A stretch of DNA of 64,000 nt, from the NCBI RefSeq assembly GCF_036492635.1, contig NZ_AP025305.1:3798000-3861999 (forward strand), read 5' to 3'. How positions within the stretch are numbered: the first letter of the stretch is position 1; each line of letters starts with the position of its first letter. A program made the position numbers and the translations under genes. Below, piece by piece: positions 4,405 to 53,995 of the stretch. Source of the DNA: Aureibacter tunicatorum (GTDB taxonomy: Bacteria; Bacteroidota; Bacteroidia; Cytophagales; Cyclobacteriaceae). Under the pieces are notes generated by a model. It did not search any database and had not been told where the DNA came from. It saw only the letters and a list, made by a program, of their open reading frames with translations.

Positions 4405-4442
4405 TCCTGTTTTCAAGTATTAAATTACCACTTGAAAACAGC
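4405..4442. repeat. Perfect inverted repeat (ctgttttcaagt...cttgaaaacag) just after the kdsB stop. Hairpin without a T-tract.
   Basis: 11-12 bp arms around a 12-nt loop, read directly from the sequence. Confidence 0.5.
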
Positions 4443-4446
4443 GAAG

Positions 4447-4620
4447 TCCCCCTTAGAAGGGGGTAGGGGGATGTTCTGTCAAATATCTCTGAGATTAAAT
4501 ATATATAAAAATCTGTAAAAGGTTTATAAAGTATTAATTAGGTTATTCTCCCTTTAAAGGGAGTTAGAGGGATGTTCATCATTACGCACTACATCCCCCT
4601 TCGCCCCCTTCAAAGGGGGA
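4447..4620. repeat. Three short G/C-rich palindromic hairpin units in the kdsB-kdsA intergenic region
   Basis: Copies: cccccttagaagggggtagggggatgttc, ctccctttaaagggagttagagggatgttc, cccccttcgcccccttcaaaggggga. Units 1 and 2 share roughly 30 bp including the 'gatgttc' tail. Confidence 0.5.
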
Positions 4621-4666
4621 TTATACTTCATCGTCACTTTTATAAAAGCAAAAAACATAAGCATCA

Positions 4667-27322: not shown

Positions 27323-28144
27323 ATGAATAAATTAAACTTCCATATCGACAAAGACTTGGATGGTGTTGAGATAATGTCCGCTAATATATTATCGCAAAAC
27401 ACTCACGCCCATACACACCAAGAATACGCTATTGGTGTAATGGAAAGAGGCGTTCAATCCTATGATCCCAAACGTAAAAAAGACAAATACATGGTGTCAG
27501 GCGATATACCTGTTGTCAATCCATTTACAGTGCACAATAGTCAAAATCTTGATGAAGATGGATTTAGCTACCGCATGTTTTACATTGACAGCAAGGTTAT
27601 AGAGCATATATCTTCGCAAGTATTTGAAATTCCTGATGCTGCCCGTATTTTTGATCGGTTTTTTATACGTGATCATTATGTTGAAAGAAACTTAATCCAT
27701 TTGCATCACATTCTGGAGAACAATGCTTTTGATATTATACAGAAGCAAAACTATTTTTATGAAGTCATAGCTTATTTGCTCAAAACACATTCAATACTCA
27801 AAGCTCATAGCCCTAGCATCATCAATGCGCATTCTGCAATTCAAAGAGTTGAGGAATATATTCATGCGCGCTATTCTCAAAAAATCGAATTGAAAGACCT
27901 GTCAAAAGTCGCATGCATGAGCCCCTATCACCTAAACAGGCTATTTGCGAAAAAAAAAGGCTTAAGTCCTCATCAATACTTAATCAACTTGCGGTTGAAT
28001 AAAGCCCGAGAGCTCTTAAAGAGCAATTATAGCGCTACTGAAATAAGCCATCAAGTAGGCTTTTATGATCAAGCTCACTTTACACGAAACTTCAAGCTAT
28101 ACATCGGAATTACCCCAAAGCAATACCAAAAACAGATTATATAG
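27323..28144 (+). CDS. AraC-family transcriptional regulator (cupin-type sensor plus HTH)
   Basis: C-terminal 'SPYHLNRLFAKKKGLSPHQYLINLRLNKARELL'. Confidence 0.75.
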   Translation: MNKLNFHIDKDLDGVEIMSANILSQNTHAHTHQEYAIGVMERGVQSYDPKRKKDKYMVSGDIPVVNPFTVHNSQNLDEDGFSYRMFYIDSKVIEHISSQVFEIPDAARIFDRFFIRDHYVERNLIHLHHILENNAFDIIQKQNYFYEVIAYLLKTHSILKAHSPSIINAHSAIQRVEEYIHARYSQKIELKDLSKVACMSPYHLNRLFAKKKGLSPHQYLINLRLNKARELLKSNYSATEISHQVGFYDQAHFTRNFKLYIGITPKQYQKQII

Positions 28145-28246
28145 CAAGAATATACAAGTTTTAAAATATCCTCTTATCTAGTTTTGCTTATATGAACAAT
28201 TCCGATAATATCAGTTATAAAACTGAGATACTTAGACAAGAACAAT

Positions 28247-28579
28247 ATGATAAATGAAAATCCATTACTTTCGAAATTCCCCTCTGCTGACATCGCTGTG
28301 GCAGGAGTCTTTTCAAAGCTTATTCAAGCTGGAGAACAACAATTTATCTTCATGGAGTTTGAATCAGACGCAGTGATTCCTCCTCACTCCCATAATGCTC
28401 AATGGGGCATTGTACTGGATGGAGAAATGGAGTTAACGATCAATAGCAGAGTACTTAGACTTAAAAAAGGCGACTCATATTTTATCAAAAAAGGGGAAAT
28501 TCATTCGGCTAAAATCAAAGCTGGCTACAAAGATCTCACATTGTTTGATCAAAAAGATCGCTACACTCCTATGAAATAA
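28247..28579 (+). CDS. Cupin-domain protein
   Basis: 'PPHSHNAQWGIVLDGEMEL...GDSYFIKKGEIHSA'. Confidence 0.6.
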   Translation: MINENPLLSKFPSADIAVAGVFSKLIQAGEQQFIFMEFESDAVIPPHSHNAQWGIVLDGEMELTINSRVLRLKKGDSYFIKKGEIHSAKIKAGYKDLTLFDQKDRYTPMK

Positions 28580-28700
28580 AACTAAACCTTTCAAAAACGA
28601 ATCAGTCGGACTGCATGTTCTGATTCGTTCTTTTCAAATTTTAAGCACACTACAAAAACTTTCGAAAATGCACATAAAATAAGGCCATCACTCACTTCGT

Positions 28701-29216
28701 CTAAAAAAACACTAATTGGCAATCAGGAAGAAGCTTAATCTGATCACAGCCGCCAATATATTTTGTGATTTTTTCAAATACTTTCCTTAATCTCTTCGCA
28801 TTAACTTCATTCGACTCTGAGTGAACTCTCCAATCAATAATAGACGTGTCATTTTTAAACCTATATTCAAGGTAATAATCAGTATGCGGAGTTATATATA
28901 ATGTAGTAGTCGGAGCATAACTATGTGGATACTTACAAATATCAATATCAACAAGATCTTGATAAATTTCTTTTTTAAAATCCAGACCAATGACGAAACT
29001 TATCGTGGTATCTTGATCCCAATCAAATTTATATGTTAAAGAATCGGTAAACGTATCAATCTTGTAAATTCCGAAATTAACTTCAGCCTTGAAGTCAAAT
29101 GTTACAGGCATTTCTTTGTCATAACGACAAGAAGAAACTTTTCGAATACATCCATGTAAAATAAATACAACAAATAACACACTTATAAATTTCATAAGAT
29201 TGCAACTCATCATCAT
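28701..29216 (-). CDS. Hypothetical lipoprotein
   Basis: Signal plus lipobox 'FILHGCIRK'. Start overlaps the upstream gene's stop by 4 nt. Confidence 0.5.
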   Translation of the reverse strand: MMMSCNLMKFISVLFVVFILHGCIRKVSSCRYDKEMPVTFDFKAEVNFGIYKIDTFTDSLTYKFDWDQDTTISFVIGLDFKKEIYQDLVDIDICKYPHSYAPTTTLYITPHTDYYLEYRFKNDTSIIDWRVHSESNEVNAKRLRKVFEKITKYIGGCDQIKLLPDCQLVFF

Positions 29217-30820
29217 ATCAAATACAACCTAACAGCTCTAAATTCCCTCTCTTCGTCTTCCAGATGATATTTAAACGTCGTCTTGGCATGCTGTATATGC
29301 ACTCCGCCGGGACGCATCGCGCAAACCACTGTCTTGTCATCTAACTCTTCCTCCTCTTGATCCCAATGGCTTCTAGGCTTCACATGTATGGCTCCCGTGC
29401 TTTCATCCACATGATCAAAGAAAATCGTCAATACATGAAGCTTTCTGTATTCTTCATCGGTAACATCTCTCCAGATAATCTCTTCCTCTTCCATACGGTC
29501 CGGTATCTGATGATGCTTTTGCCACTGGTGATGATCGTCTCTAAGAGCATTCTGATAGAACAAGGCTGCAATAATCTCTGTCGAATTCCCTAAACCAACA
29601 TCTATAAATCGTTGCAGATTATCATTGAACAAAATCGCCAGCGACTCTGGCCGGTCAATATGCAAAAGCACTGGCTTCTCCCATTCTACCCGACAGTTGA
29701 CAAATGTGCGAATTTGCTGGATTTCCTGTATGGTATAAAACTCGTCAATACTGGCATAACCTTTTCGCTGAACACGCTTGAAAGCTTCATTGATAACTTC
29801 TCCATTAATATTAAACTGGTAGTGCCTGTTGGCAAGCATCAATCGCTTCTGGATGCTCTTCTGCAATCTCGCCGGCCTTAAGACTTTTATCGCCTCTCCA
29901 AAACCCAATATCTCTTTTTCTAATTCATAGTTAAGTTGTAAATACATTGAAACTACAATTCCTCCAGGAAGATCTCGAACCTTCTTTTGCGAATGATGAA
30001 TTGGTTTGGTCAATACATAAGGAGCGTGTTTCTTTTCCACAAACAGTTCTATACGCTCAATCTTCGGCTCATATTCGACACTCACTCCGATCGCGTGTTT
30101 GAAGTAATCAACCAAATCCCAACGCGTATTGCCTATATAATCACATTCACTATTATCCAAATTGATAATCCTGTCAAATGCCAACAGCATGGGGTTTTGC
30201 TTTGCATTCTTGAACCCAAGCACAAACCAACGATTCCTGAACTCTTTCAATAACTGCGGATGAAAGTCAAAAGTGCTTTCCTCTCTGGCTTTGAATGATT
30301 TATAAGTCAGCTTTATGGATCTTTTATGCAATACAGATTCATACAAGGGTTCTAGATACTCCAAGCCCTTCAATTCATTATTGGTCTCAAACTGAATAAT
30401 CGGCATTTGATTATCTCGCTTGGACTGAACAGAATCTTCCAGCTTCTGTATCATGCCCGACAATTCTTGCACTTGCGTAAACCCTTTGAACTGCTTCAAT
30501 ATATCCACCGCATCGGATAGCTTGCGCAAATCCTGATCTGTCAGCGGAATATTTGTAATCGAATAATTCGGATCCTCATAAGTATAGTACTTTCTGTCTT
30601 TGACAATGATCGGAGCATTGTACCCCAGCTTGTCACTTCGCATCATCTGAATGTCAAGCTGTACTGTTCGTTTGCTCACTCCTTTGTCTATTCCTTCATA
30701 TTCGTACAATGCTTCCGAACAAGCTTCCACCAAGTCATCCAAGGTCCATTGCCTGAAGCGATTTTTCAAACATTGATCAATAGTCTTATAGCGCACTAGT
30801 GCGTTTCTATTTGCCGGCAT
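29213..30820 (-). CDS. HTH plus WYL domain regulator fused to a C-terminal PhyH-like Fe(II)/2-oxoglutarate dioxygenase domain
   Basis: N-terminal 'GVSKRTVQLDIQMMRSDKLGYNAPII' (HTH_11-like). WYL core 'IKLTYKSF...NRWFVLGF...MLLAFDRIINLD'. C-terminal 'FFDHVDESTGAIHVKPRSH...GGVHIQHAKTTF' resembles the PhyH 'NGxLxVIPGSH' region. Confidence 0.6.
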   Translation of the reverse strand: MPANRNALVRYKTIDQCLKNRFRQWTLDDLVEACSEALYEYEGIDKGVSKRTVQLDIQMMRSDKLGYNAPIIVKDRKYYTYEDPNYSITNIPLTDQDLRKLSDAVDILKQFKGFTQVQELSGMIQKLEDSVQSKRDNQMPIIQFETNNELKGLEYLEPLYESVLHKRSIKLTYKSFKAREESTFDFHPQLLKEFRNRWFVLGFKNAKQNPMLLAFDRIINLDNSECDYIGNTRWDLVDYFKHAIGVSVEYEPKIERIELFVEKKHAPYVLTKPIHHSQKKVRDLPGGIVVSMYLQLNYELEKEILGFGEAIKVLRPARLQKSIQKRLMLANRHYQFNINGEVINEAFKRVQRKGYASIDEFYTIQEIQQIRTFVNCRVEWEKPVLLHIDRPESLAILFNDNLQRFIDVGLGNSTEIIAALFYQNALRDDHHQWQKHHQIPDRMEEEEIIWRDVTDEEYRKLHVLTIFFDHVDESTGAIHVKPRSHWDQEEEELDDKTVVCAMRPGGVHIQHAKTTFKYHLEDEEREFRAVRLYLI

Positions 30821-30905
30821 AAATATTTTTTTTACAAAAAATCAGCTCTGAGACATGAATGAAAGCTGTTTAAAATGAAAATTTAAAGAAATTACATATT
30901 TTTTT

Positions 30906-30950
30906 TTACTGCGCAAAAAGATTGCGCATTGGCTTTTCAACTTTGTAATG
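30906..30950 (+). promoter_or_regulatory. Palindrome-containing promoter/operator motif, copy A (upstream of the tRNA-like RNA locus)
   Basis: ttactGCGCAAaaagaTTGCGCAtt...ctttgtaa. About 85% identical to 35210..35250. Confidence 0.55.
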
Positions 30951-31034
30951 AATCAAGGAAACAATCGGATGTTTCTGTACAGCATCAAGGAATCCGCCGG
31001 TAGGTTAGGATTTTCCTGATTGTGGAAGTTGGTT

Positions 31035-31215
31035 CTCTGGCTTAGCAGGTCGGAGGTTCGAATCCTCCCTTTGACTTATGGTCAAGGTAGTTCAGCAGGT
31101 TAGAACAGCTAAATTTATAGTCGTGTGGGTTCAAATCCCACCTCCTCTCGAAGGAGTGGTGGAATTGGTAGACACCTCAAATTGCAAATTTGATGACTCG
31201 GAAGTCTATGACTTC
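31035..31215 (+). ncRNA. Structured RNA built from tRNA-like modules in permuted order (tRNA-mimic / Y-RNA-like, or permuted tRNA halves)
   Basis: T-arm-acceptor hairpin-D-arm order repeated twice, followed by a type-II-like anticodon arm. Elements detailed in the first finding. Confidence 0.45.
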
Positions 31216-31450
31216 AATTTATTGACCTAAAGAACAAGGCTTTGCATTATCGGCTTTAAGCAAACGGCTCAAAGCAATTTTTAATTCGTCAGAAAATAGC
31301 GGATACCGTCTAAAGAAATTTTATTCTCTTTTGATTCGATTCATACAGACAATAAAATGAGCTTTTTTCTTAAGCCTTTTTCCATGAATTGAAAATGATA
31401 ATGCACCGTTTTGTTCTTTTTAATGTGTAACAACATAATACTTATATAAA

Positions 31451-32551
31451 ATGAAACCAATAAAAATCAATGAAGGAAACATAGGAATGATCTTCAAAAG
31501 TGGAGATTTCAATAAACTTTTGAAAGCAGGAAAGCACTGGATTAGCTTTAATGATTCAGTGGAAATCCATAATATGGCGAAGCCTTTCCAAAGCGACATT
31601 CCTCTAAATGTATTGCTAAAGCATGACGATTTCAAAAACGCTATAGAAGTAATTGAAGTCAATGACGACCAACTTGTTCTTCGATATGAAGACGGTGCCT
31701 TCAGCGAAGTATTGAGAGCTGGAAAATACGCATATTGGAAAGGTATTGCCAACCATTCATTTCAATATTGTGATTTGAAAGAAGCTAGAGTTCCAGCCGA
31801 GATCAGCTTGAACGTATTAAAAACCATGGCATTAAAGCTTTTGACTAAAGAAATTGAAATTCAACCCTTTGAAAAGGCATTGCTTTACATTGATGGAAAA
31901 TTGGATTCAGAATTAAAACAAGGAGCTCATTATTTTTGGTCTAACAGCAAAAATATTCAAATCCAACGCATAGATACCAGAACTCAAACATTGGAGATTT
32001 CAGGACAAGAGATTTTGACACAAGACAAGGTAAATCTGAGGATTAACTTTTCGGCGCAATATCAAGTATATGATATTTATCTTGCGAGAGAAAAGACCAA
32101 GGAATTTGAAACTCAATTATATCAAATGTTTCAGCTTGCTCTGAGAGAATATGTCGGTACCTTGCCTTTGGACGAACTATTGGCAAAAAAAGAATCGGTC
32201 TCTGAATTTATCATCAACCATCTTTCTGCGAAGACCAAAGAAATCGGCGTAAGAATTCTTGATTGCGGAGTAAGAGATCTGATATTGCCGGGAGAAGTAA
32301 AGGAAATAATGAATCAGGTGTTGATCGCTCAGAAAAAAGCTCAAGCGAATATCATCACCCGAAGAGAAGAAACAGCATCCACTAGAAGCTTGCTCAACAC
32401 CGCCAAGCTAATGGAAGACAACCCGATGCTATTCAAGCTCAAAGAAATGGAATACGTGGAAAAAATCTCTGAGAAAATCAGCGAAATTACACTATCCAAC
32501 GGAGGCCAGATCATCGACCAGCTTAGAGGAATGTTTGGCACTGCAAAGTAA
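31451..32551 (+). CDS. SPFH/band-7 (stomatin/prohibitin/flotillin/HflKC) domain protein
   Basis: 'ILTQDKVNLRINFSAQYQVYD...LREYVGTLPLDELLAKKES...IGVRILDCGVRDLILPGEV' band-7 core. Confidence 0.65.
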   Translation: MKPIKINEGNIGMIFKSGDFNKLLKAGKHWISFNDSVEIHNMAKPFQSDIPLNVLLKHDDFKNAIEVIEVNDDQLVLRYEDGAFSEVLRAGKYAYWKGIANHSFQYCDLKEARVPAEISLNVLKTMALKLLTKEIEIQPFEKALLYIDGKLDSELKQGAHYFWSNSKNIQIQRIDTRTQTLEISGQEILTQDKVNLRINFSAQYQVYDIYLAREKTKEFETQLYQMFQLALREYVGTLPLDELLAKKESVSEFIINHLSAKTKEIGVRILDCGVRDLILPGEVKEIMNQVLIAQKKAQANIITRREETASTRSLLNTAKLMEDNPMLFKLKEMEYVEKISEKISEITLSNGGQIIDQLRGMFGTAK

Positions 32552-32593
32552 AAAACCAGAAACCTAAAATTATAAAAAACTACAAACCCAATA

Positions 32594-33217
32594 TTGCCTT
32601 TGAATATAGAAACAACACTCAACATAGACCATAACCTTAAGGAAATGATCTTCAGCACTGCTGTTGGAGATCTTTCCTTCACCTACTTTGAGCATTGGCT
32701 GCTTAACCAAAGCCAATACCACAACCTTATTGCTGAGGATTTATTTTTCTTGAATCTTTACAGCATGGATTACCAAGACAAAGGAATTCAAGAAGAATTT
32801 GAAAAGACTATTCTAGAACACCTTGACCAAAATGAATTTGAATTATTCAAAATCAAACACATACTCAATAAAATCACTGAAGATGAAAGTCAGATAGAAC
32901 GTTTGCTTCAAGTTTGCTTGGATTGGAAAAATAACGATATGGAATGGATCAAACGATTTGGGTATCATTTATATGATTTTAGCGAATATGAATTCTATGG
33001 GTATTCGAAAAAAGAATTAATCAATAAGATTCAACGAGAAGCAAAAGATTTGCTCTCCGCATTGCAAGACGATAACCACATTCATAAAAACATAGAATTT
33101 CGGCCGAATCGATTCACTACAATTCGTCCAAAAAGTATAAAAATCAAAATCCTCAACCGGAGAAGAAAAAGAAGAAAATCAGTATTAGAGAGACTAAGAA
33201 ACATGTTAAATAGATGA
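32594..33217 (+). CDS. Hypothetical protein with strongly basic C-terminal tail (KILNRRRKRRKSVLERLRNMLNR)
   Basis: 207-aa ORF following the SPFH gene. No recognised domain. Confidence 0.45.
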   Translation: MPLNIETTLNIDHNLKEMIFSTAVGDLSFTYFEHWLLNQSQYHNLIAEDLFFLNLYSMDYQDKGIQEEFEKTILEHLDQNEFELFKIKHILNKITEDESQIERLLQVCLDWKNNDMEWIKRFGYHLYDFSEYEFYGYSKKELINKIQREAKDLLSALQDDNHIHKNIEFRPNRFTTIRPKSIKIKILNRRRKRRKSVLERLRNMLNR

Positions 33218-33223
33218 TATTTA

Positions 33224-34297
33224 TTAATTATTTTGATAAAAATATGGGTAAATTATTTTTTCCCATGTTTTTCCTCCGTCTTTTGTCATCATTAAAACAT
33301 TTCCTGAATTCACAATTCCTATTTCTTTGTTAATAAAAGATACGTTTAAAATATTTTGCAAATAAAAAAAATGCTCCCATGTTGCCCCGGAATCATTAGA
33401 AATGTAAATATCATTCGCAGCATAAGCCATTAAATAGTTAGAATCTAATTGAATTACTTTGCTTATATTCTTTCCATCAATGATTTTAATATTTATTTCT
33501 TCAAATTCATTTCCAACCTTTCTATATATTGCAGCCCCATCTGTTAAAAACAATTGTTCTCCATCGCTATTCACAAAAATAATCTCTCTTTTTTCAGGAT
33601 TAGCAAATAAACTCTGTTCCCATGTTCTTCCAAAATCTAGAGAATAATAAATAGTATTATCCTCTTCAAAACTACTATGACTTTTATTAATCAAGCTTAT
33701 ATAAATAGCGCCTGATGAGTTTGCATGAACATCAATTCCCAAATGATTCTCAAAATAATTTATTAATCTCTTTTCTTTTTTAACAAAATCATATTCATAA
33801 ATTCTACTGTCCTCTTTATTCTCACTAACAAGCAAATAAACTCTATCTTTTACAAGTTTGTAAGACTTGAGACTTTCTCCTACATTTAAACGAAACTCTA
33901 TATCCTCCCAACTATCACCTCCATCTACAGTGTAAATAAAGCTAAGGTATTTAGTTTTATAGTTTTGATTAATTAGAAAAAAAGCATATTCCTCATCCAT
34001 ATAAATTAATGGATAATCATTAAGTATAATTTCATCGTCCAAAGTTTGTGTGTCAAAACTTTCAAACCAATTATTAGTGGTAAAGAAATATCCATTTGCA
34101 TACCCATAAATTATTGAATCATTAGTTAATCGAGCGTAAAGATCTTGACCTTCTGTTAACAATTCAATTTCTGGATTAATAGTAACTGTTTCATACAAAG
34201 AATTTACTTTATCAAAAACTAAATCTTCTGAATCTCCACATGAGCAACATAACAAACATAAAAAAACAACAATATTTAAATTAATACCTCTATGCAT
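33224..34297 (-). CDS. Secreted BNR/Asp-box repeat protein
   Basis: Signal peptide. Four S-x-D-x-G-x-T-W boxes ('TVDGGDSWE', 'SLDFGRTWE', 'SNDSGATWE', 'TKDGGKTWE'). Confidence 0.65.
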   Translation of the reverse strand: MHRGINLNIVVFLCLLCCSCGDSEDLVFDKVNSLYETVTINPEIELLTEGQDLYARLTNDSIIYGYANGYFFTTNNWFESFDTQTLDDEIILNDYPLIYMDEEYAFFLINQNYKTKYLSFIYTVDGGDSWEDIEFRLNVGESLKSYKLVKDRVYLLVSENKEDSRIYEYDFVKKEKRLINYFENHLGIDVHANSSGAIYISLINKSHSSFEEDNTIYYSLDFGRTWEQSLFANPEKREIIFVNSDGEQLFLTDGAAIYRKVGNEFEEINIKIIDGKNISKVIQLDSNYLMAYAANDIYISNDSGATWEHFFYLQNILNVSFINKEIGIVNSGNVLMMTKDGGKTWEKIIYPYFYQNN

Positions 34298-34316
34298 TTA
34301 TCCTCTTTTAAGTGCT

Positions 34317-35051
34317 TCAATTATTGTATCTCGCATCATTTTTTATAATTGGCGGTCTTTTTTTAATAGGCGAAGAATATCCTAAAGTCAAAGAAATATT
34401 ATCTATATTATACCTTACTTTACTCTTCTCTTCATATACTTGCCTATGTTCCAAATTATAAATAGCATCATAATCTATTTCTAAATATGGTCGAAAAATC
34501 TCATAATTAACTTTCAAAAATAAACGACCATATCTCACTTTCACACCTGATACCATTGAAAGTCCCATACCATCCAAAAGGTGTTTCGACTTCGCTGTTT
34601 TTTTACCAGTTATTCCAATAGTTTTCAATTCATCAGAATAATAGGTATAGGTAAAATAATTTTTCACATAATTATGCTTTAATGATAATGTTGGTCGTAT
34701 TTCAAATGAGTTTCTTTTAAAAATATTATAGCTCATTTCTGCTCCTAAATTCCAATGAGTCAATACCTCATAAAGAGTCCCTGAGCTTCTTGTATAAATT
34801 GAATTAACTTTCTTTGAAGATCTTTTTATTCCGAACTCTGGTTTAATGAACAACTTCCTTTTCAATACATTTATATCCAATCCAACTGTGCCATTAAATG
34901 CCAAATTCATAGACTGATTTATATCCTTATGTTGTGGAAGAGAAATACCAAAATCAGCTTCAAAACTCTGATTCACCTCTTGAGCATATACATTTTCACA
35001 AAAACTAAACAATAATACAATACAAAGTATTGTCATTTTTATTAATCTCAT
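34317..35051 (-). CDS. Outer-membrane beta-barrel (porin-family) protein
   Basis: Signal 'MRLIKMTILCIVLLFSFCENVYAQ' with beta-strand periodicity. Similar class to 8450..9076. Confidence 0.5.
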   Translation of the reverse strand: MRLIKMTILCIVLLFSFCENVYAQEVNQSFEADFGISLPQHKDINQSMNLAFNGTVGLDINVLKRKLFIKPEFGIKRSSKKVNSIYTRSSGTLYEVLTHWNLGAEMSYNIFKRNSFEIRPTLSLKHNYVKNYFTYTYYSDELKTIGITGKKTAKSKHLLDGMGLSMVSGVKVRYGRLFLKVNYEIFRPYLEIDYDAIYNLEHRQVYEEKSKVRYNIDNISLTLGYSSPIKKRPPIIKNDARYNN

Positions 35052-35209
35052 ATCACCATCTTACATTCAAGACGTAATAATAAAACAATAAAATATAATT
35101 TTACTTCATTTATCAAACATATCATTAATCTTGTAAAAATAAGTCAAAAACCAACATGATTATATTCAATTTTCAATTCTATTTTTAAAAGGAGTTCATT
35201 TTTTTCTTA

Positions 35210-35250
35210 CTACGCAAAAAGATTGCGCAATAATGCTTCTATTTTGTAAA
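35210..35250 (+). promoter_or_regulatory. Palindrome-containing promoter/operator motif, copy B (immediately upstream of rtcB)
   Basis: ttactaCGCAAaaagaTTGCGCAat...ttttgtaa. ATG of rtcB lies 25 bp downstream. Confidence 0.55.
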
Positions 35251-35274
35251 AGACATTTTATTTAAACAAAGTAC

Positions 35275-36435
35275 ATGAAAAAAGTAATCAGCACGGAAAA
35301 ACGGCCAATCAAACTTTGGCTGGATGATATAGAAAACGGCGCCTTAGAGCAAGCCAAAAACCTTGCGAACCTTCCCTTTGCATTCAAACATATTCCATTG
35401 ATGCCGGACAGTCATCAAGGCTATGGCATGCCTATAGGCTCGGTATTAGCGACCAAGGAAGTAGTAGTGCCCAATGCTGTCGGCGTTGATATCGGTTGCG
35501 GGATGTGCGCATTGCCAACGAGCCTTAAAAATATAGAAAAAGACAATCTTAAAGCGATCTTGGGTGAAGCTCGTAAACGAATTCCTGTTGGAATGAATTG
35601 GCATAAAGAATCTCAAGGAGAAGAGCGAATGCCAGAAGGAGCTGACAGCTTGGAAATCGTCTCGCAAGGCTACAACAAAGCTTTGAAGCAAATCGGAACT
35701 TTGGGAGGAGGCAACCATTTTGTGGAAATCCAGCAAGGCTCTGACGGACATATTTGGCTGATGATTCACTCTGGAAGCCGTAACCTTGGCGCTAAAGTAG
35801 CAGACCATTATAACAAGCTGGCAAAGCGTCTGAATGAAAGGTACTTTTCAGTAGTGGACAAGAAAACGGATTTGGCATTTTTACCCATTGAAACTCCCGA
35901 AGCCAAAAACTATCTTAAAGAAATGAACTATTGCATCGAGTTTGCGCTTGCCAATAGAAAATTAATGATGGAGCGTCTAGTAGAAGCTATGCAAGCTGTC
36001 TTGGGAGAATTTGAAACAGGAGAAATGATCAATAAATCGCACAATCTGGCGACTTGGGAAAACCATTTTGGCGAAAATGTGCTCGTGCATCGTAAAGGAG
36101 CAACTCCTGCCTTTGAGGGCGAACTAGGCATGATACCAGGATCCCAGGGGACGAGTTCATATATCGTCAAAGGATTGGGAAATCCTGAAAGTTTCAAATC
36201 TTGTTCTCACGGTGCAGGAAGAAAGCTGGGCAGAAAGCAAGCTCAGCGTACTTTGGATCTGAAAGAAGAAATTCAATACCTGAATGACAAAGGCATCGTA
36301 CATGCCGTAAGAAACAAAAGCGATCTTGACGAGGCGGTAAGCGCCTACAAAAACATCGACGAAGTCATGGAAAATCAAAAGGACCTTGCCGAAATTGTTG
36401 TACAACTTTCGCCATTAGCTGTATTGAAGGGATAA
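35275..36435 (+). CDS. rtcB: RNA-splicing ligase RtcB (3'-phosphate/5'-OH RNA ligase)
   Basis: 'MPDSHQGYGMPIGSVL', 'VGVDIGCGMC', 'GGGNHFVEIQ', 'SHGAGR' RtcB metal- and GMP-binding motifs. Confidence 0.85.
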   Translation: MKKVISTEKRPIKLWLDDIENGALEQAKNLANLPFAFKHIPLMPDSHQGYGMPIGSVLATKEVVVPNAVGVDIGCGMCALPTSLKNIEKDNLKAILGEARKRIPVGMNWHKESQGEERMPEGADSLEIVSQGYNKALKQIGTLGGGNHFVEIQQGSDGHIWLMIHSGSRNLGAKVADHYNKLAKRLNERYFSVVDKKTDLAFLPIETPEAKNYLKEMNYCIEFALANRKLMMERLVEAMQAVLGEFETGEMINKSHNLATWENHFGENVLVHRKGATPAFEGELGMIPGSQGTSSYIVKGLGNPESFKSCSHGAGRKLGRKQAQRTLDLKEEIQYLNDKGIVHAVRNKSDLDEAVSAYKNIDEVMENQKDLAEIVVQLSPLAVLKG

Positions 36436-36476
36436 TAATCGGCTGTCAATAAGATCATTTATTGATGGCTGATTTT

Positions 36477-36761
36477 TTAATTTAATCCTAACTCAAACCT
36501 CAAAAATAAATACATGCCCAATAAAATCAACCCAATGAATGCAACATCAATTCTTTTCTTAGAGTAAGCTAAATATCCAAGAATACAAATCTGACTTATG
36601 GATGTCAAATCAATATTAAACTCCGGAGCATTAGCACTCGCTCCCCAGCCAAGAACCAAAAATTCGAAAAATATAGAAGCATATGCCAACCCTATAAATA
36701 TCAAGATATTTAGCGTTGCTAGCAAAATTATTCTTATGTATATATTTTTAGACAAGTTCAT
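36477..36761 (-). CDS. Hypothetical small membrane protein
   Basis: 94 aa with three hydrophobic segments, in an AT-rich region. Confidence 0.3.
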   Translation of the reverse strand: MNLSKNIYIRIILLATLNILIFIGLAYASIFFEFLVLGWGASANAPEFNIDLTSISQICILGYLAYSKKRIDVAFIGLILLGMYLFLRFELGLN

Positions 36762-37629
36762 AGTGATTAATCAAATTATAAAAGTAGTTTAAAAAGCTAT
36801 GCATTTGCATTAATTCCCAAATGCACCTTAAAAATATCATGCAACTGATCTATTTCAATATTCTCAAATTCAGCGATTGTGTTATAATTGTCAGTATTTA
36901 TATTTCCACCTTCTACAGAAACAAAAAAGTTTTATCACTTTTTAATGTGGACACATATATCATTTTTGAATCATCCAAATTCAAGAAACCAATCGTTTCC
37001 AAATCTGCTTCCCAAAAATCTTTGACTTTAAAATGACTTGCAAACTTGAAATCCAAATAGTTAATCAAGTTTAATATTTTCCAGCTTTTATTCATATTCA
37101 CAATACTAGCTAATAAAGTTAAAGCATTTATAATAAGTCCCTCCTTCTATAAATTCGCTTTTCAAAAGAGTTGCATAAATATTAAACCCTAACTAATCCA
37201 TCAAATGAACACATTAAATATAGTTTCAGGCTCATCATAGCAAACCACCCTCAAAAAAATCTTGCTCCTAAAAAATCTTATATGGGGAAACCAGCTTTAA
37301 AACTTTATTATCAAAACTTTTACTCCAAATCAACCATTATCGCCAAACAAAATTTCACAAAATGTCATGATTTTTCTTTAATAAAACAATTAATATTACA
37401 TACTTGAAATAAAAAAATAGAGGTAACATAGTGCAATTCCAATGAATAAAAGCCTCTATATAATAGACTATCAATCAATACAATAGAATTTCTTCAATAT
37501 TCTTACATCTTGGCTAATTAAAGTTTTTTTTTCAAAACAAAAAATCAATAATATTTGCATCAGCATGCAAACAAGGAAAATATTATCGATAATTTTTTTA
37601 ATTACTTTACAACTTTTCAAACAAAACCA

Positions 37630-38856
37630 ATGAAAACGCTTAAATTTCTAAGTTATCTGACAGTATTGTTGTTTTTCACAAACTGCCAGAATCAGATAGA
37701 GGAACAAGCCGCTACTACTAAAAATCAAAACACCCTTTTCGAAATCGTAGTCAATCAACCTGATATTGCTAAGATAAGCGGAAGATCAGCCAATGAATCT
37801 CCATTTATCAAGCCCGTATACAATGAGGTTACTTATATCGGCTACAATATTTTTCATGACGGCGTGCAAGTAGTTGCTCAAACTCTAATCGCGAAAGTAG
37901 ATAATGACGGTATTTGTAGAATCACAGATCCTAATTTCAGTTTGAAATTGGATGCGCCTAAGGATTATGAGCTTATCAGACTAGAGCTTCTCAATGAAAA
38001 TCTTGAGCCGCTTTATTACTTGAAAGACGCTAAACCTGTTTCGTTCAGCACAGAAGTTGACCAACCAACAGTGATACAAGCTGAAGTAGTGAAGTATCAA
38101 GGCGATATGCCAAGAGAGGACGTGGACACGGTAAGCGCAGAGGTTGAAGCGAAAATCACTGGAGATATCCCTGTATATGTTGACTTCTTCGTTGATGATG
38201 TAATTCACTACGGTGAAGTGACTGTTGAAATCTTCGACTTGAACGACCAATTGATCAGCGAGCAAACGATTGTAACTAAGGCCGACGAGAAGGTTTACAT
38301 TACATTCCCTTCTATCGAAAACCATGAGGGCTACAATGTAAGATTCACTTCAAAGAGAAGCAAAGAAAGATCTGGAGAACTATCAAGAAAGCTAATCGTC
38401 AATGTAGATGGAATCGAAGTATACGCGGAAGGTCTGTTCGAGCATAAAATCTTGGAGCATGATTCTTTAACAGCGCATAACATCTATAATGGCTACAATC
38501 AAATGATCGACGAAGTGCCTTACAAAGCGATCAAGTTCGAAAGACATCCAACTGAGGATTCTACAGTCGTGCTTAACGACTACTCGGGACGTTTCACTCA
38601 AATCTTGACACCATGGTGGAAACCAAACGAGCCTTTGGAAATCAAGAAAATCAAGATTCTTGGCGAGCCTTATCCAAATGGTGGCGGAGTAATGAGAACC
38701 AACATTCTTATCACTATAGGCCGAGTTGGCATGGAAGACAAGAATTTCGCATTGGATGGATTCTATGAAAATGTGCCGGGAACGGAATTGATGGACATCA
38801 ACTTCGCTCAAAAGAACCCGAATATAAATTACACAAAAAGCTTAAGACTTTTGTAA
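37630..38856 (+). CDS. Hypothetical lipoprotein
   Basis: Internal ATG gives signal and lipobox 'MKTLKFLSYLTVLLFFTNCQ'. The ORF-track start 37555 lies upstream of the signal peptide. Confidence 0.5.
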   Translation: MKTLKFLSYLTVLLFFTNCQNQIEEQAATTKNQNTLFEIVVNQPDIAKISGRSANESPFIKPVYNEVTYIGYNIFHDGVQVVAQTLIAKVDNDGICRITDPNFSLKLDAPKDYELIRLELLNENLEPLYYLKDAKPVSFSTEVDQPTVIQAEVVKYQGDMPREDVDTVSAEVEAKITGDIPVYVDFFVDDVIHYGEVTVEIFDLNDQLISEQTIVTKADEKVYITFPSIENHEGYNVRFTSKRSKERSGELSRKLIVNVDGIEVYAEGLFEHKILEHDSLTAHNIYNGYNQMIDEVPYKAIKFERHPTEDSTVVLNDYSGRFTQILTPWWKPNEPLEIKKIKILGEPYPNGGGVMRTNILITIGRVGMEDKNFALDGFYENVPGTELMDINFAQKNPNINYTKSLRLL

Positions 38857-50515: not shown

Positions 50516-50582
50516 ACAGAGTATATTATACCTAAAATATATTATGCAAATATTTGCCTAATGTAAAAAAAGCGTTACATTT

Positions 50583-50680
50583 GCGTAGCGATTCGGGACT
50601 ACCAGCTCCTTATGAACTCCCCCAGGGCCGGAAGGCAGCAAGGGTAGTAAGTTGTAGCGGTGAGATCTTGAATCGCTACT
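50583..50680 (+). ncRNA. ffs: Signal recognition particle RNA (small/4.5S type), copy 1
   Basis: Domain-IV signature 'cccccagggccggaaggcagcaagggtag'. Closing helix gtagcgattc/gaatcgctac. Preceded by TAcaTTTG (-7-like box), followed by a T-run. Confidence 0.7.
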
Positions 50681-50791
50681 TTTATTTATAGCCATTTAGA
50701 ATTAACACGCCTCTCTTCTCTAAATCGGTTTTTCGACTTATATTTACTCCACAACCGAAACCGACACCACACAGCAACCGAATTCCACTGA

Positions 50792-51445: not shown

Positions 51446-51483
51446 TAAAAGTGTTTGCAATTACAATTAATTCAACTATATTT

Positions 51484-51577
51484 GCATCGCAATTCGGGAC
51501 TACTAGCTCCTTATGAACTCCCCCAGGGCCGGAAGGCAGCAAGGGTAGTAAGTCGTAGCAGTGAGATCTTGGATTGC
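51484..51577 (+). ncRNA. ffs: Signal recognition particle RNA (small/4.5S type), copy 2 (diverged paralogue)
   Basis: Same domain-IV core. Closing helix gcaattc/ggattgc with compensatory changes relative to copy 1. Preceded by TAtaTTTG, followed by TTTTTTT. Confidence 0.65.
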
Positions 51578-51686
51578 TTTTTTTATGCTCAAATTTTATT
51601 ACCCCCCAGTCCCTTTCAACACTCAATATCAAACAATAGATAGATCTAGAGGTTTAAGTTTAAGATTCTTTCTTTTCCCTCAAACC

Positions 51687-52772: not shown

Positions 52773-52842
52773 TCCATATTAATCAAAAACAAAAAAGCGA
52801 AACGCAATAATACGTTTCGCTTAAAATCAAAAGAAAATCTCG

Positions 52843-52915
52843 AGCGGGTGATCAGGTTCGAACTGACGACTTACAGCTTGGAAGGCTGTCGCTCTACCAA
52901 CTGAGCTACACCCGC
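52843..52915 (-). tRNA. tRNA-Gly (anticodon UCC)
   Basis: Reverse complement folds as GCGGGTG-TA-GCTCAGTTGGTAGAGC-G-ACAGC-CTTCCAA-GCTGT-AAGTC-GTCAGTTCGAACCTGAT-CACCCGC-T. Confidence 0.9.
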
Positions 52916-52952
52916 AATAAAAGAGTAACAACCGACAAATATCGGAAAATAG

Positions 52953-53025
52953 AGCGGGTGATCAGGTTCGAACTGACGACTTACAGCTTGGAAGGCTGTC
53001 GCTCTACCAACTGAGCTACACCCGC
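52953..53025 (-). tRNA. tRNA-Gly (anticodon UCC)
   Basis: Identical copy of 52843..52915. Confidence 0.9.
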
Positions 53026-53041
53026 GATTTTCAATTCTATG

Positions 53042-53124
53042 TGGGGAGAGCAGGATTCGAACCTGCGAAGTCGAAAGACAACGGATTTACAGTCCGTCCC
53101 AGTTGGCCGCTTTGGTATCTCCCC
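53042..53124 (-). tRNA. tRNA-Tyr (anticodon GUA), type II with long variable arm
   Basis: Reverse complement GGGGAGA-TA-CCAAAGCGGCCAACTGGG-...-CTGTAAA-...-GCAGGTTCGAATCCTGC-TCTCCCC-A. Confidence 0.85.
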
Positions 53125-53169
53125 AACTAAATATTTTAAATTTATTCAAACCTATTATTTGAATACTGG

Positions 53170-53242
53170 AGCGGGTGATCAGGTTCGAACTGACGACTTA
53201 CAGCTTGGAAGGCTGTCGCTCTACCAACTGAGCTACACCCGC
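53170..53242 (-). tRNA. tRNA-Gly (anticodon UCC)
   Basis: Identical repeat copy. Confidence 0.9.
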
Positions 53243-53258
53243 GATTTTCAATTCTATG

Positions 53259-53341
53259 TGGGGAGAGCAGGATTCGAACCTGCGAAGTCGAAAGACAACG
53301 GATTTACAGTCCGTCCCAGTTGGCCGCTTTGGTATCTCCCC
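53259..53341 (-). tRNA. tRNA-Tyr (anticodon GUA)
   Basis: Identical repeat copy. Confidence 0.85.
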
Positions 53342-53387
53342 AACTAAATATTTTAAAATTTATTCAAACCTATTATTTGAATGCTGG

Positions 53388-53460
53388 AGCGGGTGATCAG
53401 GTTCGAACTGACGACTTACAGCTTGGAAGGCTGTCGCTCTACCAACTGAGCTACACCCGC
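53388..53460 (-). tRNA. tRNA-Gly (anticodon UCC)
   Basis: Identical repeat copy. Confidence 0.9.
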
Positions 53461-53476
53461 GATTTTCAATTCTATG

Positions 53477-53559
53477 TGGGGAGAGCAGGATTCGAACCTG
53501 CGAAGTCGAAAGACAACGGATTTACAGTCCGTCCCAGTTGGCCGCTTTGGTATCTCCCC
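53477..53559 (-). tRNA. tRNA-Tyr (anticodon GUA)
   Basis: Identical repeat copy. Confidence 0.85.
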
Positions 53560-53605
53560 AACTAAATATTTTAAAATTTATTCAAACCTATTATTTGAAT
53601 GCTGG

Positions 53606-53678
53606 AGCGGGTGATCAGGTTCGAACTGACGACTTACAGCTTGGAAGGCTGTCGCTCTACCAACTGAGCTACACCCGC
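53606..53678 (-). tRNA. tRNA-Gly (anticodon UCC)
   Basis: Identical repeat copy. Confidence 0.9.
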
Positions 53679-53694
53679 GATTTTCAATTCTATG

Positions 53695-53777
53695 TGGGGA
53701 GAGCAGGATTCGAACCTGCGAAGTCGAAAGACAACGGATTTACAGTCCGTCCCAGTTGGCCGCTTTGGTATCTCCCC
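53695..53777 (-). tRNA. tRNA-Tyr (anticodon GUA)
   Basis: Identical repeat copy. Confidence 0.85.
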
Positions 53778-53823
53778 AACTAAATATTTTAAAATTTATT
53801 CAAATCTATTATTTGAATGCTGG

Positions 53824-53896
53824 AGCGGGTGATCAGGTTCGAACTGACGACTTACAGCTTGGAAGGCTGTCGCTCTACCAACTGAGCTACACCCGC
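53824..53896 (-). tRNA. tRNA-Gly (anticodon UCC)
   Basis: Identical repeat copy. Confidence 0.9.
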
Positions 53897-53912
53897 GATT
53901 TTCAATTCTGTG

Positions 53913-53995
53913 TGGGGAGAGCAGGATTCGAACCTGCGAAGTCGAAAGACAACGGATTTACAGTCCGTCCCAGTTGGCCGCTTTGGTATCTCCCC
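53913..53995 (-). tRNA. tRNA-Tyr (anticodon GUA)
   Basis: Repeat copy with a single substitution in the flank. Confidence 0.85.

Follow-up and report, generated by a model that had tools for sequence, protein, structure and literature searches.

Organization of the locus

The window, the whole 64-kb stretch of Aureibacter tunicatorum DNA that was analysed (contig NZ_AP025305.1), carries a putative regulator gene facing away from a structured RNA, followed by an SPFH/Band-7 gene, a conserved gene designated here as p207, two genes on the opposite strand, and rtcB. The features are listed below in window coordinates.

29213..30820 (-): putative regulator gene, 535 aa, with winged HTH, 3-helix linker, WYL, WCX, and C-terminal Fe(II)/2OG-dioxygenase-like domain
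30895..30907 (+): T-rich tract of copy 1, immediately 5' of operator copy 1 and found also in copy 2 (flank alignment)
30908..30930 (+): operator copy 1, 23-bp pseudo-palindrome ACTGCGCA-AAAAGAT-TGCGCATT, predicted at -42 to -20
30938..30945 (+): putative -7 box of promoter 1, CAACTTTG, with TTTG starting 11 nt past the operator
30950..31225 (+): structured tRNA-like RNA (covariance models and alignment; ends putative)
30950-31040 (+): 5' domain of the tRNA-like RNA, aligning with Fulvitalea axinellae
31041-31145 (+): circularly permuted tRNA-like cloverleaf with a second T-arm, 94.8 bits with covariance model (CM) R1
31201-31215 (+): weak hairpin at which the acceptor/D-arm/anticodon-arm-like 3' part of the RNA closes
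31451..32551 (+): SPFH/Band-7 protein gene (Pfam Band_7, 1.4e-31), conserved partner of the tRNA-like RNA
32594..33217 (+): p207, 207-aa protein, conserved member of the module according to the contexts of its homologues
33224..35051 (-): two genes, for a BNR/sortilin-repeat protein and a 244-aa OMP-like protein, which probably split an ancestral operon; context, outside the system
35196..35208 (+): T-rich tract of copy 2, 5' of operator copy 2 (flank alignment)
35209..35231 (+): operator copy 2, 23-bp pseudo-palindrome ACTACGCA-AAAAGAT-TGCGCAAT
35239..35246 (+): putative -7 box of promoter 2, CTATTTTG, with TTTG 11 nt past the operator
35275..36435 (+): rtcB, 386 aa, RNA 3'-P/5'-OH ligase (Pfam RtcB, 1e-110)
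36437..36474 (+): terminator-like hairpin immediately 3' of rtcB, with a 17-bp stem and a T-run behind it

A block of about 55 bp is present twice on the same strand, at 30895-30950 and 35196-35250. Its cores are GCGCAAAAAGATTGCGC at 30911-30927 (+) and ACGCAAAAAGATTGCGC at 35212-35228 (+), and with at most one mismatch allowed these are the only matches in the 64-kb window. The chance expectation is 0.08 and none of 100 shuffled sequences contained two, which bears out the earlier note of a motif occurring twice in one orientation. The coordinates given there needed adjustment, as the 'ttact' of copy 2 begins at 35207 and not at 35210, and the 'ctttgtaa' of copy 1 stops at 30948. The distances given there are roughly correct: some 90 nt separate the end of copy 1 from the strongest tRNA-like module (31041), and 25 nt separate the end of copy 2 from the rtcB start codon (ATG, 35275). 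The WYL regulator gene (-) and the tRNA-like RNA, with the SPFH gene behind it, diverge from the intergenic region that holds copy 1.

Operator and promoter geometry

Aligned with their flanks, both copies share the block CAT-T(7-9)-ACT[G/A]CGCAAAAAGATTGCGCA[T/A]T-N8-TTC-A-TTTGTAA. In the family consensus the tract 5' of the operator is A/T-rich, aaaataattttt, and the operator consensus of 89 strict sites is ACTRCGCAAAAAGAYTGCGYAGT. The core had been described as 6-bp arms with a 5-nt spacer; about 220 related sites instead keep 8-bp arms and a 7-nt spacer, with the symmetry ACTRCGCA-N7-TGCGYAGT, which corresponds to 30908-30930 and 35209-35231 in the window. A. tunicatorum has a symmetric inner AA/TT pair; most relatives do not, and read ...AAAAAGAC-TGCG. 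A single consensus describes the sites adjacent to WYL genes and the internal second and third copies.

Of 104 sites, 89 have exactly 11 nt between operator and TTTG. The sigma-A consensus of Bacteroidota, TAnnTTTG, occupies -12 to -5 (PMC9723704), and positions of the operator relative to the transcription start site (TSS) are predicted from this rule (PMC9723704). By it, transcription from promoter 1 would start at about 30950 and from promoter 2 at about 35251, the latter giving a 24-nt leader. Compared with a sigma-A promoter, TTTG is invariant (by selection) and at fixed distance, A at -11 is common, and T at -12 is unconserved. The consensus has no TTTG at the -33 position, and thus no -33 box. 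Across Bacteroidota generally, -33 boxes are weakly conserved, and the missing box is for this reason weak evidence. From the sequences, each copy appears to be a composite operator-promoter, in which the binding site is built into the promoter.

The half-sites vary independently, with A-C at the symmetric positions 4/20 in 36 of 89 sites. Such variation fits a pseudo-palindrome bound by protein and speaks against a nucleic-acid hairpin acting as terminator, attenuator, or RNA stability element. A consensus scan did list a terminator-like element at 30910-30928, with a 7-bp stem and a T-rich tail. The stem pairing is nevertheless without covariation, mismatches are frequent at positions 1/23 and 2/22, and the asymmetric A-rich spacer of the operator itself is conserved. 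Moreover, the element is situated 5' of the predicted TSS at fixed distance to the -7 box, and upstream of copy 1 there is no gene on the same strand to terminate. An intrinsic terminator or RNA hairpin was rejected on the lack of covariation and of this upstream gene, and a hairpin function in general is extremely improbable. The view that the core is the site of a dimeric regulator gains from the independent variation of the half-sites and from the gene of a wHTH-WYL-WCX protein lying divergently next to copy 1.

Putative WYL regulator

The product of 29213..30820, which matches an Aureibacter tunicatorum protein with 100% identity, comprises a winged HTH, a helical linker, a WYL domain, and a WCX dimerisation domain. 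WYL (1.6e-10) and WCX (7.2e-7) were matched in Pfam, and the PADLOC WYL profile spans residues 15-317. In the AF2 model (pLDDT 78.5), the secondary structure fits the order wHTH-linker-WYL-WCX. The best Foldseek matches were DriD (8tp8, E 9e-14) and PafBC-RNAP (9fnd, 3e-11). The C-terminus resembles the dioxygenases FtmOx1, EvdMO1, and GriE (about 1e-7 in Foldseek), and orthologues of the regulator carry Pfam PhyH. A phmmer search against PDB sequences gave no match, so the kinship is seen through Pfam domain profiles and fold, not through pairwise similarity to solved regulators. Most likely, judging from sequence and gene order, the operator is the binding site of this neighbouring regulator.

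The tRNA-like RNA

The RNA at 30950..31225 scored below the Rfam gathering thresholds (GA) for YrlA (RF02553; 34 bits, GA 69) and for tRNA (RF00005; 27.2 and 18.6 bits, GA 29). The YrlA match covers model positions 23-87 only, and none of nine related loci reached the YrlA threshold. ARAGORN predicted no tRNA at 30950-31250. A conserved structure is nonetheless evident, as 20 of 24 pairs show compensatory changes in an alignment of 14 sequences, and CM R1 matched 25 related loci with at least 50 bits, each match running in the direction of the promoter.

With YrlA the RNA shares the same permuted order of closing anticodon-like stem, T-arm, capped acceptor-like hairpin, and D-arm. It differs in that no Ro-binding stem was identified in it, in the concatenation of modules with further T-arms and tRNA-like parts, and in its partner, which is SPFH and not Ro. 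In other loci, real-scoring tRNAs, tRNA arrays included, take the equivalent place behind the motif.

Distribution across Bacteroidota

A search of 80 related loci of Bacteroidota gave 87 strict sites. All fall within the 622 kb on the divergent flank of the WYL gene; the 618 kb of the opposite flank contained none, and neither did 20 shuffles. Two strict sites are present in 15 loci and three in four. In most genome loci, the WYL gene is about 35 nt from the palindrome. These 80 loci were chosen through the WYL protein, and WYL adjacency among them is partly by construction, which a motif-first scan of metagenomes corrects in part.

When the window with its two copies is counted together with the 80 loci, the first ORF behind the motif encodes RtcB in 37 cases, SPFH preceded by the RNA in 17, and Ro/TROVE in 12; rarer first ORFs encode a T4-type RNA ligase (three), RlaP (two), and Hen1 (one). 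The RNA precedes SPFH in all 16 genome-locus sites with SPFH as first ORF, and nearly all metagenome loci with SPFH behind the motif have an R1 match of at least 57 bits. The product of p207 has no Pfam or NCBIfam match, and its homologues are coded directly behind the motif in two genome loci (L054 and L066) and four metagenome loci.

The motif-first scan yielded 91 sites with enough sequence. In 70 of them, a reference family, defined in the WYL-selected loci as RNA repair or the WYL regulator itself, is among the first four ORFs. The families adjoining the motif are mostly RtcB, SPFH with the RNA, Ro/TROVE (13 sites), Pnkp-Hen1 (with Hen1 first and Pnkp behind it), RlaP, and divergent WYL. 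About 20% of the sites precede unrelated or unknown genes, such as PIF1 helicase (twice) and an ECF sigma factor. On sequence evidence, the motif is conserved across Bacteroidota before RNA-repair genes (RtcB, Ro, Pnkp/Hen1), tRNA-like RNAs, and tRNA arrays.

The palindrome might be bound by a different, unlinked transcription factor, with the WYL gene a co-regulated passenger: no WYL gene is present within 2.5 kb of 43 of the 91 sites, and binding by the WYL protein is deduced. However, sites without WYL are expected of secondary members of a regulon, and no DNA-binding protein other than WYL is consistently linked to the motif, from which WYL diverges at 48 of the 91 sites. In addition, lineage-specific variants of the spacer, such as AAATAC in Mucilaginibacter (L068-L080), are found at WYL-adjacent and internal sites alike. 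Control by an unlinked factor is therefore improbable, and the divergently encoded WYL protein remains the preferred regulator.

Fulvitalea axinellae is the closest relative. There, one motif heads a single operon RNA-SPFH-p207-RtcB-RlaP, whose RtcB is 77% identical to that of the window and from which both genes of 33224..35051 are missing. The arrangement with two copies would thus represent a split of that operon, and the statement that a shared operator, not one operon, links the genes in the window agrees with this. Co-regulation of rtcB and the tRNA-like RNA, suggested earlier, is strengthened as a deduction from sequence by the same motif, orientation, and 11-nt spacing at the RtcB and RNA+SPFH sites and again in the metagenome scan. 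The analysis adds to the earlier note a probable regulator, the likelihood that the 3' half of the motif belongs to a promoter, and a regulon that apparently extends over the phylum.

Comparison with known systems

DriD of Caulobacter crescentus is a homodimeric wHTH-3HB-WYL-WCX activator (PMC13004042, PMC10853764). Its site ATACGAC(X)7GTCGTAT overlaps -35 and is at identical distance to -10 in all regulated promoters, which have no -35, and one site is in a bidirectional promoter shared with driD (PMC13004042). The system described here resembles it in the fold of the regulator, in a pseudo-palindrome with 7-nt spacer over the -35/-33 position, and in an identical distance to -10/-7 in every promoter, each being without -35/-33 (TSS-relative positions are here predicted). 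Also shared are one site in a bidirectional promoter with the regulator gene and several promoters per regulon. The half-site is TRCGCA and not ACGAC, and the regulator would act on a Bacteroidota sigma-A promoter with -7 box. DriD targets DNA-damage genes (didA, bapE, recJ, dnaG), whereas RNA-repair and tRNA-like or tRNA genes stand behind the motif here. Many orthologues, and the window regulator itself, have the extra C-terminal 2OG-dioxygenase-like domain.

In the rsr-yrlBA-rtcBA operon of Salmonella, the RtcB ligase is co-expressed with a non-coding RNA mimicking tRNA (PMC7790460), as is predicted here from sequence. The parallel drawn in the earlier note holds further in that the motif precedes Ro/TROVE in other Bacteroidota, which places it in the same regulon there, and in that the RNA has a permuted tRNA-like module of YrlA type; the presumed logic in both is induction by damaged RNA. 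The differences are a WYL protein at a sigma-A promoter in place of the CARF-AAA+ sigma-54 enhancer-binding RtcR, SPFH/Band-7 as the partner of the RNA, and genes spread over several promoters with one common operator. No TROVE homologue was found in the 64-kb window by tblastn, and no Sigma54_activat domain in the ten ORFs around both motif copies (27323-38856). An Rtc operon under RtcR and sigma-54 was rejected, since the adjacent regulator is a WYL protein and the promoter is of sigma-A type with a TTTG -7 box; RtcB alone agrees with such an operon.

Burroughs and Aravind 2016 (NAR 44:8525) reportedly linked SPFH/Band-7 to a 'novel tRNA-like molecule' in repair systems of RtcB type, and are said to have linked WYL domains to RNA-repair systems. 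Our literature search found no account of the operator sequence, the fixed promoter geometry, a multi-promoter regulon, or real tRNA genes behind the operator, and we know of no such description, Burroughs and Aravind 2016 included. PMC7824862 cites Burroughs and Aravind 2016 and Makarova et al. 2014 where it discusses 2'-3' cyclic RNA ends and the recognition of cyclic nucleotides by WYL domains.

Proposed mechanism

The motif is very probably an operator shared through the WYL regulator and co-regulating an RNA-repair regulon. Within this, ligand-dependent activation, by which a homodimer at the operator-promoter would switch the RNA-repair genes together, is the reading we moderately favour, because the geometry matches that of the WYL activator DriD. 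The 23-bp palindrome, predicted at -42 to -20 and at rigid distance to the sigma-A -7 box, would replace the missing -33 element and be bound by the homodimer of the divergently encoded wHTH-WYL-WCX protein. By analogy to DriD and PafBC, the wHTH domains would be released once single-stranded nucleic acid occupies the WYL domain, after which the dimer, bound to DNA, would bring RNA polymerase to promoters without -33 box. Fragments of damaged RNA or tRNA are the most plausible ligand by analogy. To our knowledge, the solved WYL regulators all bind ssDNA, not RNA.

With its centre near -31, the site might just as well obstruct the polymerase. The same regulator might thus be a repressor of CapW/BrxR type, its dimer blocking RNA polymerase over the -33 region until a damage signal bound by WYL releases it. 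The position of the operator within the promoter and the divergent autoregulated layout, which is typical of repressors, are in line with this. According to PMC11662680, ssDNA-sensing wHTH-WYL-WCX repressors are documented, and CapW/BrxR are WYL repressors of defence systems that bind promoter-overlapping palindromes. They have the same domain architecture, a palindromic operator in a divergent intergenic region, and nucleic-acid damage signals, but repress phage-defence operons, usually from a single site (PMC11662680). Rigid operator-to-promoter spacing across a regulon is not known to have been reported for CapW/BrxR. Drift in the position of the operator would be tolerated by a repressor. 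An 11-nt spacing that does not vary among families across the phylum, combined with the lack of a -33 box, is what has been reported as characteristic of the activator DriD. Activators also head the structural matches, though fold cannot separate both classes. Repression is for these reasons a possible but rather unlikely mode.

Under ligand-dependent activation, copy 1, in the bidirectional region between regulator and target, would drive the tRNA-like RNA and probably SPFH and p207 as well, and copy 2 would drive rtcB. With both copies under one regulator, RtcB would be switched on together with the tRNA mimic and the SPFH protein that partners it. The ancestral state would have been one operon with one site; after the two inserted genes had split it, rtcB would have kept its control through the second site.

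Two copies of the motif in the window

The regulator encoded in the window is 100% identical to a protein of Aureibacter tunicatorum (Bacteroidota, Cytophagales), from which the window comes. The motif, a 23-bp pseudo-palindrome with a predicted -7 box, is present in two copies on the + strand, and the presence of a repeated motif, as described in the earlier note, is borne out. Only 0.08 sites were expected; no third match to the motif core was found in the 64-kb window at up to one mismatch, and two matches were reached in none of the shuffles of the window sequence. When the flanks of both copies were aligned, the similarity extended over about 55 bp, comprising a T-rich tract, ACT[G/A]CGCAAAAAGATTGCGCA, eight variable bases, and TTC-A-TTTGTAA. 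The T-tract flank CAT-T7-9 is common to both copies and unlike the family consensus at this place, aaaataattttt, which weakly suggests that the promoter was duplicated within the genome.

Features around the two motif copies (positions in the window)
29213-30820, - strand: regulator gene, 535 aa, Pfam WYL and WCX; divergent from copy 1, which is 87 nt upstream
30911-30927, + strand: motif core copy 1, GCGCAAAAAGATTGCGC, sequence match
Between copy 1 and the SPFH gene: tRNA-like RNA region, downstream of copy 1
31451-32551: SPFH/Band-7 gene, downstream of copy 1
32594-33217: 207-aa ORF (p207), downstream of copy 1
33224-35051, - strand: two genes between p207 and copy 2
35212-35228, + strand: motif core copy 2, ACGCAAAAAGATTGCGC, sequence match
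35275-36435: rtcB, start 25 nt past copy 2

A strong terminator-like hairpin lies directly behind rtcB. On the other side of the region, a 171-aa ORF with lipoprotein-like N-terminus (28701-29216, - strand) and the stop of the regulator gene share 4 bp, and because of this overlap both are probably co-transcribed. This ORF had no match in Pfam, NCBIfam, or PADLOC and no homologue among the related loci.

Conservation and geometry of the motif

Eighty loci encoding relatives of the WYL protein were taken from GTDB species genomes of Cytophagales, Flavobacteriales, Sphingobacteriales, Saprospiraceae, Balneolaceae, and others. About 47 of the 80 loci have an rtcB homologue in divergent orientation upstream of the regulator gene, and in about 26 an SPFH homologue stands between the two genes. 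Most loci carry the motif in the region upstream of the regulator gene, with its start usually about 35 nt from the regulator ATG and its orientation always away from this gene. Scanning of entire loci gave 104 oriented sites, the two of the window included, with the consensus (A/T-rich)-ACTRCGCAAAAAGAYTGCGYAGT-N11-TTTGtatcatcaa. At 89 of these sites TTTG starts exactly 11 nt past the palindrome, 87 of them being in related loci.

The earlier note had made its claim depend on positional bias of the motif and on its conservation upstream of rtcB, and both were found in the related loci. The 87 related-locus sites without exception lie upstream of the regulator gene and on the strand divergent from it (622 kb scanned), versus no strict site on the other side of it in 618 kb and zero in 20 shuffles of all loci; in the 80 loci and the window together, RtcB is the gene preceded at 37 sites. 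Two strict sites are present in 15 loci and three in four loci, and internal and regulator-adjacent copies have one identical consensus; therefore, judging from these sequences, two copies as in the window are a normal state of the system. At many sites ATCATCAA is kept 3-12 nt past the -7 box (e.g., L039 6091, L042 4314, L057 9682, and L069 9831 of the genome loci), regardless of whether RtcB, TROVE, or RNA comes next. It is weak in window copy 1 (30949-30957, TGAATCAAG) and absent from copy 2, and may reflect a preference in the initiation region or act as a second regulatory element.

The 3' part of the motif is probably the Bacteroidota sigma-A -7 box, for which the consensus TAnnTTTG at -12 to -5 is reported (PMC9723704). 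As TAnnTTTG occupies these positions, transcription starts are predicted near 30950 and 35251, which would put the palindrome at about -42 to -20, where the -33 TTTG would stand. A canonical -33 TTTG was sought in the motif consensus 19-21 nt upstream of the -7 box and was not found, because the palindrome takes up that place. In the symmetric core, two 8-bp arms flank a 7-nt spacer that is A-rich, conserved, and asymmetric, and positions paired by symmetry change independently of each other (A-C at 4/20 in 36 of 89 sites). All this agrees with a pseudo-palindrome that is bound by protein and lies within a directional promoter. A hairpin or terminator reading of the palindrome, flagged by a consensus scanner, was rejected, as no covariation was found across sites. 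No convincing mirror-image counterpart of the -7 box was found for the regulator gene: on the other side of the palindrome, some loci have TTTG-like T-rich strings, but at variable offsets. Rfam at gathering thresholds placed no curated family on the motif or the RNA in the window and nine related loci.

The regulator and its probable mode of action

The AlphaFold model of the regulator (pLDDT 78.5) has a winged HTH (residues 1-81), a helical linker, a WYL beta-barrel, WCX, and a C-terminal beta-rich domain. The top Foldseek match in PDB was DriD, the WYL activator of Caulobacter crescentus (E 9e-14), including DriD-ssDNA-RNAP-promoter complexes, followed by the related activator PafBC bound to RNAP; phmmer against PDB sequences gave no match, so the fold search alone succeeded. 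The C-terminal third was matched by Foldseek to PhyH-type Fe(II)/2OG dioxygenases. Searched alone, neither end of the window regulator (N-terminal 138 aa, C-terminal 199 aa) gave a Pfam match to HTH or PhyH, while PhyH reached 9e-14 in orthologues and the Pfam domain is present in most close ones. The window copy is shorter than these and stays below the Pfam PhyH threshold, so its dioxygenase-like C-terminus is proposed on the basis of alignment and fold. Along this third (29213-29800), the orthologues P0003-P0120 show a WYL-PhyH fusion in most close members, with HxD...H kept in the alignment. Distant orthologues align with the window regulator over residues 1 to about 335 only and, since the match ends there, appear to be without the dioxygenase domain; despite the shorter match, they adjoin the same motif. 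We found no WYL transcription factor with a fused dioxygenase described in the literature searched.

A WYL regulator with a palindromic site embedded in the promoter belongs to a known class. DriD binds ATACGAC(X)7GTCGTAT overlapping -35 (PMC13004042). Its promoters are without -35, the distance from site to -10 is identical in all those regulated, and one site lies in the bidirectional promoter shared with driD (PMC13004042). All these features match those of the present motif, and mainly because of this geometry activation is preferred, by analogy, over repression. A WYL regulator at a palindrome could instead act as a repressor, as is described for CapW, with its promoter-overlapping palindrome (PMC11662680); given the match with DriD, we regard this as less likely here, but as a realistic alternative.

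Under activation, a dimer of the WYL regulator would sit on the palindrome of each promoter. A damage signal would bind the WYL domain and render the dimer active; by analogy this would be single-stranded nucleic acid, here plausibly fragments of cleaved RNA. The dimer over the -33 position would then recruit RNAP-sigma-A, leading to joint production of RtcB, p207, and the tRNA mimic plus its SPFH partner; in other genomes, Ro, Pnkp-Hen1, Rnl, RlaP, and spare tRNAs would be added to these. The sequence features with their statistics, their conservation, the genes associated with the motif, the protein fold, and the covariation in the RNA are shown by the data. We infer that the regulator binds the palindrome, that RNA and SPFH are co-transcribed, where transcription starts, in which direction regulation runs, and what the ligand would be.

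Genes behind the motif

In the 80 loci and the window, its own copies included, the first ORF after the motif was RtcB at 37 sites, with short leaders, and SPFH at 17, past a non-coding gap of 0.5-1.5 kb. It was Ro/TROVE with vWA domain at 12 sites, T4-type RNA ligase at three, RlaP nucleotidyltransferase at two, Hen1 at one, and the p207 family at about five, besides assorted others. As these loci had been selected through the regulator, a motif-first scan of metagenome contigs was added using the pattern CGCAAAAAGAYTGCGYA-N13-TTTG, and it gave at least 124 sites in at least 120 contigs. Among the metagenome matches listed, 91 sites had 1.2 kb or more of sequence downstream, and at 70 of them one of these families was within the first four ORFs; a divergent WYL homologue was present at 48 of 91 sites with enough sequence on the other side. 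The first recognised family among these listed matches was RtcB (25), SPFH (14), TROVE (13), same-strand WYL (7), p207 (4), Hen1 (4), RlaP (1), Rnl (1), or an unnamed 743-aa family (1), and a minority of the sites precede unrelated or unknown genes. The ORF next after Hen1 is Pnkp (PF16542, 1.5e-178).

A perfect motif precedes a PIF1-like helicase in L125 (1919, + strand) and L148 (3466, + strand) and an ECF sigma factor in L106 (4393, - strand); these sites possibly extend the regulon beyond RNA repair or are unrelated look-alikes. In metagenome loci L086, L118, L130, L138, L147, L159, L173, and L180, the motif is followed by a same-strand ORF of 135-204 aa matching the WYL regulator, which by its layout is a different, directly autoregulated arrangement, the short ORF being possibly a truncated paralogue. 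A family of 720-760-aa proteins is found behind the motif in genome loci L007 (2606) and L060 (8644) and metagenome loci L093 and L108. Its sole Pfam signal is a sub-threshold prokaryotic RING-finger (E 0.0046, 17.3 bits, cut-off 27), and this uncharacterised family is a candidate member of the RNA-repair regulon.

tRNA-like RNA and tRNA genes

Rfam gave only sub-threshold matches for the tRNA-like RNA, to YrlA (34 bits, GA 69) and tRNA (27.2 bits, GA 29), and ARAGORN found nothing in its region. Each non-coding gap before SPFH contains two to eight T-loop motifs (16/16 loci). An alignment of 14 sequences folds as a circularly permuted cloverleaf, with a closing anticodon-like stem, T-arm, capped acceptor-like hairpin, D-arm, and then another T-arm, and compensatory changes are present in 20 of 24 pairs. 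The covariance model built from this alignment, R1, scores 94.8 bits at 31041-31145; a score of at least 50 bits is reached by 25 of the 81 related genome loci and, among the 100 metagenome loci listed, by about 20. Matches of at least 50 bits are always oriented as the promoter, and they lie before the SPFH genes, in the metagenome loci before nearly all of them. Weaker matches fall on junctions of real tandem tRNAs, which is expected of such a model and hints at the origin of the RNA. The permuted module has YrlA architecture, but by score the RNA is not a member of YrlA RF02553, and its partner is SPFH, not Ro. Association of a tRNA-like RNA with SPFH was reportedly already noted by Burroughs and Aravind (2016).

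In other genomes, the motif is followed first by a tRNA that scores normally, most commonly tRNA-Tyr(GTA), which is first at 9 of 19 sites with forward tRNAs. Three contigs carry 8-11 tRNA genes between motif and SPFH (L006 9061-9861, - strand; L102 about 4040-5150, + strand; L131), apparently normal and comprising Asn, Leu, Arg, Pro, Lys, Gln, Asp, Tyr, and others. Seven more loci (L021, L028, L029, L032, L034, L153, and L172) have a lone tRNA-Tyr(GTA) in place of the array. The tRNAs behind the operator-promoter may be damage-inducible spares. The 5' domain of the window RNA (30950-31040) aligns loosely to the motif-linked tRNA-Tyr genes, with anticodon and T-loops lost.

Elsewhere in the window, a tandem array at 52842-53995 (- strand) consists of five tRNA-Tyr(GTA) and tRNA-Gly(TCC) units, recurring about every 218 bp, and one further tRNA-Gly, i.e., 11 tRNA genes within 1.15 kb; R1 cross-matches the junctions of these genes at about 37 bits. 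Bacteroidales_small_SRP was found twice on the + strand, at 50579-50682 (72.9 bits) and 51480-51583 (62.7 bits), both exceeding the GA of 55.2. The two matches are 900 bp apart, on either side of a 217-aa ORF, and such a duplicate of SRP RNA genes would be unusual.

The proposed RNA-repair regulon and its split arrangement in the window

RtcB, Pnkp-Hen1, and Ro are widespread RNA-repair enzymes, and to our knowledge control of their expression in bacteria is understood solely for enterobacterial sigma-54/RtcR. A neighbourhood link of WYL, SPFH, and tRNA-like RNA to RNA repair is said to have been predicted in 2016. Neither the operator and its rigid promoter geometry, nor an RNA-repair regulon with several promoters, nor tRNA genes controlled in this way were found described in the full-text literature search. 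The motif offers a concrete, easily tested cis-element and a candidate regulator for the entire phylum, from which the RNA-repair regulon can be read straight from genome sequence, and it turns control of RNA repair outside the RtcR paradigm into simple experiments, although a specialist would not be astonished. It would tie the WYL activator mechanism, known from DriD/PafBC and DNA damage, to RNA damage. The YrlA-like tRNA mimic and its SPFH partner, along with real tRNA arrays in certain genomes, would come under one switch, which suggests that tRNA-cleaving toxins are countered with decoys or replacements. The 23-bp site with its -7 box could also serve as a damage-inducible promoter in Bacteroidota genetics.

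Tentatively, and with more doubt than confidence, Bacteroidota could be regarded as having a phylum-wide "RNA-damage SOS response" run by a DriD-like WYL activator. This activator, often fused to a 2OG-dioxygenase, may sense broken or chemically damaged RNA and may then activate a scattered regulon whose operator-promoters are identical. The regulon may comprise all major RNA-repair systems (RtcB, Pnkp-Hen1, Rnl, RlaP, and Ro), the SPFH-bound concatenated tRNA mimic, and spare tRNA genes or whole tRNA arrays, which may replace tRNAs cut by anticodon nucleases. If true, the activator would be the first of the WYL regulators to have an RNA ligand, and the tRNAs would be the first chromosomal reserve that is damage-inducible and tied to RNA repair.

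The regulator and RtcB of Fulvitalea axinellae are 57% and 77% identical, respectively, to the window proteins. In this species, a single motif, also with TTTG at +11, stands before an uninterrupted unit of RNA, SPFH, p207-like, RtcB, RlaP, and RlaP, and no second copy was found at the unit. In the window, two opposite-strand genes separate p207 from rtcB, which is preceded by a motif of its own. What the earlier note calls a shared operator rather than one operon is, according to the contiguous unit of Fulvitalea axinellae, a derived state of an ancestral operon.
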